The notes below the pieces were generated by a model. The model was not told the origin of the DNA and did no database searches. It was given only the letters and a program-made list of their open reading frames with translations. A stretch of DNA of 5,365 nt. Source: a virus. Its lineage: Duplodnaviria; Heunggongvirae; Uroviricota; Caudoviricetes. Positions 501 to 791 of this stretch are shown piece after piece. Where the stretch lies: the IMG/VR virus record IMGVR_UViG_2602041568_000011; one strand, 5' to 3'. How positions within the stretch are numbered: position 1 is the first letter of the stretch; each line of letters begins with the position of its first letter. A program made the translations under genes and the position numbers.

Positions 501-560
501 AGCCTCACCTCCGCAAATAACGGATGGCGTAGTTTTACACTGAGAAATGAAAGGGATTTG

Positions 561-592
561 AAAAGAAAAACCCGCAAAAGCGGGCGAAACGA
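561..592 (-). terminator. Intrinsic (rho-independent) terminator between the tRNA cluster and the holin
   Basis: Minus-strand RNA forms CCCGC-UUUU-GCGGG (plus 570-583) followed directly by UUUUUCUUU. A GC stem with a U-tract is seen directly in the sequence. Confidence 0.6.
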
Positions 593-660
593 TATATACA
601 GAAAGGAAAGCACTCTATCCAACAAACCACCCACAGTTAATCGGAATAAAAGCAGAGTGC

Positions 661-733
661 TTATGAATGATCGCCTGCTCGAAGGTTAGTATTTCTGCAC
701 AGCAATTTTGCAAAAAAAGGCGATCATTCATAA
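661..733. repeat. Perfect 15-bp inverted repeat (TTATGAATGATCGCC / GGCGATCATTCATAA) with a 43-bp spacer; a 9-bp inverted repeat (AAGCACTCT 607-615 / AGAGTGCTT 653-661) abuts it.
   Basis: Direct reverse-complement match of 661-675 with 719-733. Function unknown; candidate RNA stem-loop or protein-binding site. Confidence 0.6.
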
Positions 734-740
734 CTTAAAC

Positions 741-786
741 GTCTTTCAGTCACTCCGGGATTTCCCATCATCGCAGACTGAAAGAC
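741..786. repeat. 10-bp inverted repeat (GTCTTTCAGT / ACTGAAAGAC) enclosing an inner GGGA-TT-TCCC hairpin, immediately 3' of tRNA-Gly on the minus strand
   Basis: 741-750 is the reverse complement of 777-786. The structure starts 6 nt after the tRNA-Gly 3' end, so it may be a processing or stability element of the tRNA transcript. Confidence 0.5.
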
Positions 787-791
787 TCTAA

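Follow-up and report, generated by a model that had tools for sequence, protein, structure and literature searches.

A probable structured RNA between the tRNA array and the holin gene of an Escherichia coli lambdoid prophage

The stretch of DNA analysed here, which we call the window, comprises 5,365 nucleotides (nt) of the virus record IMGVR_UViG_2602041568_000011 (Caudoviricetes) and represents the late-regulatory region of an Escherichia coli lambdoid prophage. Its late operon reads on the minus strand, and an array of tRNA genes and a holin gene are found in it as the initial annotation had described. Strain AR_0077 carries a locus with 100% identity, which runs on into lysozyme, spanin, terminase and portal genes. 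The subject of this work is the spacer between the last tRNA of the array, tRNA-Gly, and the holin gene (Table 1). It contains an element of three hairpins, followed by a terminator, and we present evidence that this element belongs to an RNA of the minus, i.e. late-sense, strand.

The three perfect inverted repeats that had been noticed in the spacer are present and turned out to be slightly longer than initially given, with arms of 11 bp (741-751/776-786), 16 bp (661-676/718-733) and 9 bp (608-616/654-662). The terminator proposed to follow them on the minus strand was likewise recovered. Its stem at 585-570 (GCCCGCTTTTGCGGGT) has six pairs, five of them G-C, and a loop of 4 nt, and the U-run TTTTTCTTTT extends from 569 down to 560, as expected of an intrinsic (Rho-independent) terminator. 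In RNA folding, a 238-nt stretch was far more stable than its dinucleotide shuffles (z = -6.0 and -6.1 for the two strands), none of 200 being as good. In the window copy alone the repeats are perfect palindromes, so its sequence does not decide between the strands.

In homologues down to about 73% identity, compensatory changes have preserved the pairing of all three stems. Hairpins 2 and 3 were analyzed together in an alignment of 42 distinct sequences with 40 pairs and 1674 cells, from which RNAalifold recovered and refined both hairpins. On the minus strand 97.5% of the cells were standard-paired, compared with 35-50% when the partners were slid by 1-3 columns and 86% when the alignment was read on the other strand. 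Eleven of the 40 pairs had changed on both sides (105 cells), several of them with three pair types or independent singleton changes, and in 500 shuffles neither the pairing nor the covariation score of the real alignment was attained. Hairpin 1, for which 27 distinct sequences were available, gave 95.9% paired cells and four pairs changed on both sides, again with none of 500 shuffles comparable. In the alignment of hairpins 2 and 3, G-U cells numbered 209 and A-C cells 16, and a covariance model built from it scored 158-164 bits in sense versus 15-19 bits in antisense orientation. Because G-U pairs far exceed A-C combinations, these comparisons indicate that the object of selection is the RNA of the late-sense strand, neither the DNA as such nor the complementary strand. 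This excludes that selection maintains palindromes of the DNA, a scar or a convergent small RNA (sRNA) of the plus strand. That the element is a functional structured RNA on the late-sense strand appears to us very probable.

Conservation extends beyond pairing. The upper stem and loop of hairpin 2 (UUUUGCAAAAUUGCUGUG) and the 3' strand of hairpin 3 (GGGUGGUUUGUUGG) barely change, whereas the basal stems diverge. As two of the scans by which homologues were collected had required conserved words, each motif was judged in a set gathered otherwise. Each proved near-invariant in the set gathered through the other motif, and in a stem-anchored set, obtained with the hairpin-2 stem only, the exact 18-mer occurred in 26 of 41 distinct sequences and the 14-mer of hairpin 3 in 32 of them. 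The variation left in this set was mostly U-to-C, by which a U-G pair becomes a C-G pair. Within hairpin 3, exchanges between G-U and A-U pairs alter the 5' strand and leave the 3' strand unchanged. Since one strand drifts and the other stays, the fixed strand may have a second role, e.g. in binding of a partner.

The spacer is present at an identity of at least 95% in 529-530 of 5426 complete E. coli genomes (about 10%). All of these copies are chromosomal and none is annotated; many of the carriers are extraintestinal, avian or clinical isolates. Among the carriers, AR_0077 has the locus at NZ_CP026755.1 1970060-1970351 and APEC O1 at NC_008563.1 2074312-2074604. The sole divergent match of a low-stringency BLAST search was a copy in phage HK639 with about 75% identity. 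Exact-word scans with the two conserved motifs and a third scan with the hairpin-2 stem only yielded dozens of distinct variants in viral contigs (relatives are labelled L plus a number; L002 is HK639). When one genome per species was scanned, Enterobacter hormaechei, Phytobacter ursingii, Yokenella regensburgei, Citrobacter sedlakii, Shigella flexneri and E. coli proved to carry copies, the remaining matches being due to chance; in these other Enterobacteriaceae, too, the records leave the element unannotated. A group of metagenomic contigs (L137, L129, L130, L131, L161, L166 and L173) was rejected: these share the exact 18-mer TTTTGCAAAATTGCTGTG but fail both the covariance model and the hairpin-2 fold. 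The hexamer TTATGA also stands at the same distance of 12 nt upstream of the 18-mer in this group. Its 18-mer is either a coincidence or a shared DNA motif and was treated as chance or unrelated.

In HK639, the element lies between the Q and holin genes, directly 3' of a truncated tRNA-Gly, and is followed by that phage's own annotated terminator. Q and the holins differ from those of the window and the tRNA-Gly is truncated, yet the whole element is retained. The HK639 record, which is carefully annotated for RNAs, lists the flanking terminators; the element is absent from it. From Q to the holin gene, the leader of this phage contains an isrJ-like short pR' RNA, a tRNA, the truncated tRNA-Gly, the element with its terminator, an sRNA of the STnc100 family with its terminator, a further terminator and the holin gene. 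Because this leader strings together a short pR' RNA, tRNAs, the element and an STnc100-family sRNA, the element appears to be one of several RNA genes along the Q-to-holin leader. The STnc100-family sRNA (RF02076) is itself unannotated; it is located at L002 2706-2911 on the minus strand (NC_016158.1 about 44780-44985), scores 52.6 bits (gathering score 47) and has its 3' end at a terminator annotated in the record. The tRNA at L002 3257-3328 is unannotated too, and next to it only a 3' fragment of tRNA-Gly is present.

The composition of the element differs between relatives. Hairpin 1 is optional and missing in L057, L074, L105, L152, L223 and L241, where hairpin 2 directly follows the tRNA, and hairpin 3 is replaced in some lineages. 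In L156 and L072, hairpins 2 and 3 with the terminator are preceded by an open reading frame (ORF) of 64-69 amino acids (aa) and not by a tRNA. Mosaic junctions between phages coincide with hairpin boundaries, so that the hairpins behave as exchangeable modules. Of the early idea that the spacer is the scar or target of cargo exchange, the scar is not supported, since a scar would not covary as the stems do. The PPompW prophages of O157 have the order Q-tRNA-Met-tRNA-Lys in common with the window, but in these an insertion sequence (IS) element interrupts and the structured element is absent. Two neighbouring ORFs were seen in passing. The ORF of L156 and L072 (MLLKTLKILALVICFVVSC...) is conserved, encodes a hydrophobic or Cys-rich product and occupies the interval that separates the tRNAs from the element, about 75-285 nt upstream of the latter. 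Another conserved ORF of 62 aa (MQEGFYWIKHVDSVQVAYF...) is found in L105, L241 and L200 about 200-560 nt downstream of the element and before the holins, without an obvious terminator in between.

A consensus scan detected a sigma-70-type promoter (Table 1) downstream of tR', with its end about 9 nt from the first tRNA. The arrangement TTGCxx, 17 nt and TATTAT or TATCAT recurs at a constant distance from the tRNA in relatives whose upstream DNA and spacer sequences have nothing in common, and these hexamers look like a real sigma-70 promoter. Since the conserved promoter adjoins the tRNA array downstream of tR', it implies that the prophage tRNAs can be expressed independently of Q, that is in the lysogen. 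At the other end of the array, 0-7 nt separate the CCA of the final tRNA from the start of the element in most relatives; this tRNA is usually Gly(UCC) and sometimes another. The sequence CCA followed by GUU(A/U) is kept in all tRNA-linked relatives. The junction at 787-792 is presumed to be the tRNA 3' processing site from which the 5' end of a trailer would result, because E. coli tRNA 3' trailers are processed in that way. Most variants have a terminator about 15-30 nt after hairpin 3. These terminators are of at least three unrelated sequences, non-homologous between lineages, and their recurrence downstream of hairpin 3 suggests that selection keeps a terminator at this place, which fits a defined 3' end as well as insulation of the holin gene.

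As the tRNA promoter lies downstream of tR', promoter, four tRNAs, structured RNA and terminator together appear to form a self-contained moron with a cargo that is wholly RNA. Like a moron, the unit has a putative promoter and a terminator of its own and is placed between Q/tR' and the holin gene. With tRNA-Gly ending at 793, the element at 792-586 and the terminator at 585-560, it also has the layout of a tRNA 3' external transcribed spacer (3'ETS), and the same holds for most relatives. Stem covariation, the late-sense G-U bias, the abutment to the tRNA and the conserved promoter all support the initial suggestion of a structured small RNA that is co-transcribed with the tRNAs. The condition initially named as refuting it, stems that are neither conserved nor covarying, clearly does not hold.

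Table 1. Features of the window around the structured element, in the order in which the late operon is read.
Feature	Position	Strand	Details
DUF968 protein	2355-3404	minus	
RusA	1983-2342	minus	
Antiterminator Q	1297-1992	minus	PF06323
pR'-like promoter	1313-1285	minus	downstream of Q
tR' terminator	1233-1210	minus	closes short pR' leader (promoter and leader, 1313-1208)
Sigma-70-type promoter of the tRNA array (putative)	1112-1140	minus	-35 TTGCAA at 1140-1135, 17-nt spacer, -10 TATTAT at 1117-1112; consensus scan
tRNA array, four tRNAs	1102-793	minus	ARAGORN; Rfam tRNA scores of 44-74 bits
tRNA-Met/Ile2(CAT)	1027-1102	minus	ARAGORN, Rfam
tRNA-Lys(UUU)	949-1025	minus	ARAGORN, Rfam
tRNA-Thr(UGU)	871-946	minus	ARAGORN, Rfam
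tRNA-Gly(UCC)	793-867	minus	ARAGORN, Rfam
Spacer between tRNA-Gly and holin gene	792-501	minus	292 bp
A/U-rich junction GUUAGA	787-792	minus	between the CCA of tRNA-Gly and hairpin 1
Hairpin 1	741-786	minus	11-bp stem (786-776 with 751-741), two more pairs, inner GGG/CCC stem (767-764 with 756-759)
Family core, hairpins 2 and 3	595-744	minus	covariance model R1, 158.1 bits, E = 3e-38 (18.8 bits on the plus strand)
Hairpin 2	661-733	minus	16-bp base (733-718 with 661-676), asymmetric internal loop, 8-bp upper stem (716-709 with 692-699)
Conserved 18-mer of hairpin 2, UUUUGCAAAAUUGCUGUG	715-698	minus	
Apical loop of hairpin 2, AAAUUGCUG	708-700	minus	9 nt, nearly invariant
Hairpin 3	608-662	minus	basal stem (660-653 with 610-617), upper stems 645-641 with 618-622 and 638-635 with 625-628
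3' strand of hairpin 3, GGGUGGUUUGUUGG	632-619	minus	G/U-rich, nearly invariant
Linker	586-607	minus	unstructured, U/A-rich, between hairpin 3 and terminator; sequence not kept between lineages
Intrinsic terminator	560-585	minus	stem 585-570 and U-run 569-560
Phage-21-type holin, first lysis gene	285-500	minus	PF04971, E = 1.4e-35

Some further features of the window deserve mention. The short pR'-to-tR' leader (1208-1281, minus strand) gave weak isrJ/isrK scores of 22.7-24.5 bits, under the gathering score, and its HK639 counterpart scored 34.6 bits with isrJ (gathering score 37); the leader probably yields a short terminated late-promoter RNA of the 6S/StxS type. The terminator at 1210-1233 has a bidirectional form. 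The first tRNA of the array is Met(CAT) according to ARAGORN, and the identical gene of AR_0077 is a tRNA-Ile in RefSeq/PGAP, i.e. a lysidine-type tRNA-Ile2. The second, Lys(UUU), has the lowest Rfam tRNA score of the array (44 bits). In related prophages (sampled were L018, L068, L079, L094, L122, L133, L185 and L195), ARAGORN assigned the anticodons Phe(AAA/GAA), Leu(UAA), Arg(UCU) and "Stop" (UUA, ochre-suppressor-like) to this second position and left others unassignable, so that it looks like a slot for an anticodon-switching or suppressor tRNA. Elsewhere in the window, a perfect pentanucleotide repeat (GCTGG, 8.4 copies) at 4742-4783 separates the adjacent minus-strand ORFs 4718-5203 and 4317-4709, which jointly resemble one FkbM-type methyltransferase (PF05050 on the downstream part). 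The pair is a candidate phase-variable gene and is situated in a block of low G+C content unlike prophage DNA. At the edge of this block, at 4094-4151, there is a non-coding perfect inverted repeat of 25 bp with a spacer of 8 nt (ATTATGTCGGCATTAGTGAAGCGAT / ATCGCTTCACTAATGCCGACATAAT).

The Rfam/Infernal comparison that had been recommended showed that no known family covers the element. Searches of Rfam 15 with the whole window (E <= 1) and with positions 540-800 (E <= 10) returned only noise of up to 18.5 bits over the element, and the HK639 copy gave only weak, terminator-driven matches. Full-text searches within one literature library, directed at the invariant motifs, at prophage tRNA 3'ETS RNAs and at late-leader sRNAs, brought up no account of the element. 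By location, it joins a group of known RNAs, as the pR' moron site carries Hfq-bound sRNAs (PMC4104026; bioRxiv 10.64898/2026.05.13.724894). AgvB and AsxR are encoded there in convergent orientation to the late operon (PMC4104026), PasA and PasC adjoin the holin gene (bioRxiv 10.64898/2026.05.13.724894; PMC4104026), PasD/STnc100 is sense-oriented and follows Q (PMC8550237; bioRxiv 10.64898/2026.05.13.724894), and StxS derives from pR'-tR' (PMC7547250). The element shares with AgvB/AsxR (RF02702, RF02703) and PasA/PasC that it is non-coding cargo of the moron site. However, those RNAs are 51-85 nt long and antisense or convergent to the late operon, whereas the element has about 230 nt, sense orientation and an unrelated sequence. 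The length of 51-60 nt, the conserved 3' 42 nt and the orientation convergent to the pR' operon that mark AgvB and AsxR are not those of the element, which matched neither RF02702 nor RF02703. The published Northern probes for PasA, PasB and PasC of strain E2348/69 had no match in the spacer with up to six errors, and BLAST of the spacer against the PasD2-PasA locus of E2348/69 and against the PP10 locus with a pseudo-tRNA-Gly and an sRNA revealed no homology in the element. STnc100/PasD (RF02076), a Hfq-associated prophage sRNA of about 172 nt, is likewise a sense-oriented, terminator-ended RNA gene in the Q-to-holin leader and in HK639 forms the next unit downstream of the element. Unlike STnc100/PasD, the element folds differently and is tied to tRNA arrays, and it did not match RF02076 even at E <= 10. 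We consider it, by location, a candidate new family among the prophage moron-site RNAs.

In position and architecture, the element most resembles a tRNA 3'ETS RNA or a 3'-end-derived sRNA. 3'ETS-leuZ of E. coli, which Lalaouna and colleagues are said to have described in 2015, is reportedly an sRNA sponge released from the 3'ETS of the glyW-cysT-leuZ tRNA operon. Both RNAs lie between the last tRNA and the intrinsic terminator of the operon, and both have a terminator hairpin with U-tail and release by tRNA 3' processing, the latter as a prediction for the element. The element has about four times the length, folds into three extended hairpins that are conserved, is phage-borne and has no sequence relation to 3'ETS-leuZ; Hfq binding and sponge activity are features of 3'ETS-leuZ, to which the element is likened by position and architecture only. 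Small stable structured RNAs, species 1 and species 2, also occur in the tRNA gene cluster of phage T4. By description only, the element resembles them as a structured RNA that would be co-transcribed and co-processed with a phage tRNA cluster, but T4 is an unrelated lytic phage and is not known to have a dedicated terminator architecture there. Mimicry of GcvB or an anti-GcvB function was rejected. A 9-10-mer (GUCUGCGAU) shared with this sRNA and the G/U-rich stretch of the element had suggested it, but local alignment and complementarity were no better than in shuffles (p = 0.16-0.55).

The strongest rival to a regulatory RNA is an element that acts purely in cis on processing or stability. 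The hairpins, close to the 5' monophosphate left by tRNA excision, could shield the lysis/late mRNA from 5'-end-dependent decay by RNase E, or they could protect the 3' end of the tRNA precursor and help termination. Either function would suit the observations that the first hairpin, be it hairpin 1 or 2, begins 1-7 nt after the tRNA CCA, that the element is always found in the late leader in sense orientation and upstream of holins, and that in some relatives the next ORF follows the element without an intervening terminator. A stabiliser, however, requires stems and not sequence, yet here it is the stems that drift, and the sequence is almost fixed in the hairpin-2 loop and in one of the two strands of hairpin 3. 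Moreover, a terminator stands right after the element in most relatives, a further sRNA and two additional terminators lie between it and the holin gene in HK639, and in L156 and L072 it persists without a preceding tRNA. A cis function thus explains the position but neither the sequence invariance nor the dedicated terminators, and we regard it as unlikely, though it deserves to be taken seriously.

A put-like antiterminator RNA would also act in cis, making the polymerase read through downstream terminators. The put RNAs of HK022 and HK639 consist, like the element, of two adjacent bulged stem-loops upstream of terminators in a lambdoid transcript; hairpins 2 and 3 abut directly and precede one to three terminators, and one homologue resides in HK639, a known user of put-type RNA (put anatomy, PMC9378689). 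But put RNAs of about 70 nt (126 nt as annotated in HK639) are located after the early promoters (PMC9378689), pL and pR, and the element is located in the late leader of phages that also encode Q. Model R1, run with filters off over the whole HK639 genome, found the element itself and nothing at the annotated putL-like RNA (34187-34312), at the M3-like RNAs or elsewhere. In addition, with the predicted constitutive tRNA promoter upstream, readthrough into the holin gene would kill the lysogen. Antitermination of this kind is very unlikely.

Hardly any weight can be given to a feature at the level of the DNA, be it palindromic sites for protein binding or recombination or a cargo-exchange scar, or to a convergent plus-strand sRNA resembling AgvB or AsxR. 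The perfect palindromes of the window fold equally well on both strands, phage junctions fall on hairpin borders, the plus strand has a C/A-rich stretch at 619-632, and convergent sRNAs are known at the site (PMC4104026). Against this, the stems tolerate G-T and not A-C, which is the signature of minus-strand RNA pairing, the antisense model score is a fraction of that in sense orientation, no terminator was found for a plus-strand RNA, and the AgvB and AsxR families were not matched in Rfam.

A small protein gene at 615-731 (minus strand) is scarcely credible: although the ORF of 38 aa at this position exists, is entered as "hypothetical protein" in GenBank ON470580 and ON470583 and has a frame, ending in ...GWFVG, that is open in some divergent relatives too, it fails the tests of a conserved frame, a conserved start and a third-position pattern. 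Translation would stop within 6-23 codons in about 10 of the 42 distinct relatives, through T-run length or nonsense changes, and at codon 27 in nine more; differences in T-run length shift the frame even among near-identical copies. The start is TTG in most relatives, a Shine-Dalgarno sequence is lacking and the 16-bp stem sequesters the start codon. Variable columns are distributed over the three codon positions as 14/19/22, which is no third-position excess and not a coding pattern, and compensatory stem changes account for the conservation of the region. As this ORF is the sole candidate and is broken in many relatives, the initial statement that the spacer has no credible ORF holds.

Given these findings, we propose that positions 560-792 of the minus strand encode a structured non-coding RNA of about 230 nt, which would be the 3' trailer of a self-contained prophage tRNA unit and probably regulatory. 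On balance we lean towards this proposal as a whole. The tRNA unit would be an insertion into the leader of the late operon, downstream of pR'/tR' and ahead of the lysis genes. In the lysogen, transcripts from the tRNA promoter would stop at the terminator, which would thereby insulate the holin gene from this promoter and leave it silent. tRNA 3' processing would then free the trailer as a discrete RNA that ends with the U-run of the terminator and is stabilised by its own hairpins and the terminator hairpin. During lytic growth, Q-modified polymerase would pass the terminator, and large amounts of the same RNA would be excised from the late transcript. With its invariant motifs in loop and strand, the trailer would bind an RNA or protein of host or phage and would serve as a trans-acting regulatory or sponge RNA of the 3'ETS or 3'-end-derived type. 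Judged separately, release of a discrete RNA of about 130-230 nt is likely; its action as a regulator in trans is a tentative suggestion.

Several observations weigh against this proposal. The aligned sequences form few clades, so that many cells represent few events, and with identities of about 73-100% they have diverged modestly. As hairpin 3 or hairpin 1 is missing from some relatives, the functional unit is not sharply bounded. A minority, e.g. L105, L241, L003 and L056, has no obvious terminator right after hairpin 3, and there the element would remain within a longer mRNA. Finally, a computational test of GcvB as a partner was negative.

The alignment is ready to be turned into a covariance model of a new RNA family, and our result speaks against the "hypothetical protein" annotation in the two phage records. 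The element suggests that phage tRNA arrays may come with a functional trailer RNA. More doubtful, but of wider consequence, is the idea that it represents an undescribed family of phage riboregulators, whose members, produced constitutively in lysogens and in large amounts in the lytic phase, would use the invariant loop of hairpin 2 (AAAUUGCUG) and the G/U-rich strand of hairpin 3 (GGGUGGUUUGUUGG) to trap an sRNA, mRNA or RNA-binding protein of the host. If this were true, the element would be the first phage-borne counterpart of a 3'ETS sponge and would link prophage tRNA cargo to rewired post-transcriptional control of the host or to defence evasion. The pR' moron site houses Shiga toxin and several virulence-linked sRNAs, and a conserved RNA cargo at this site is a candidate regulator in lysogenic conversion.

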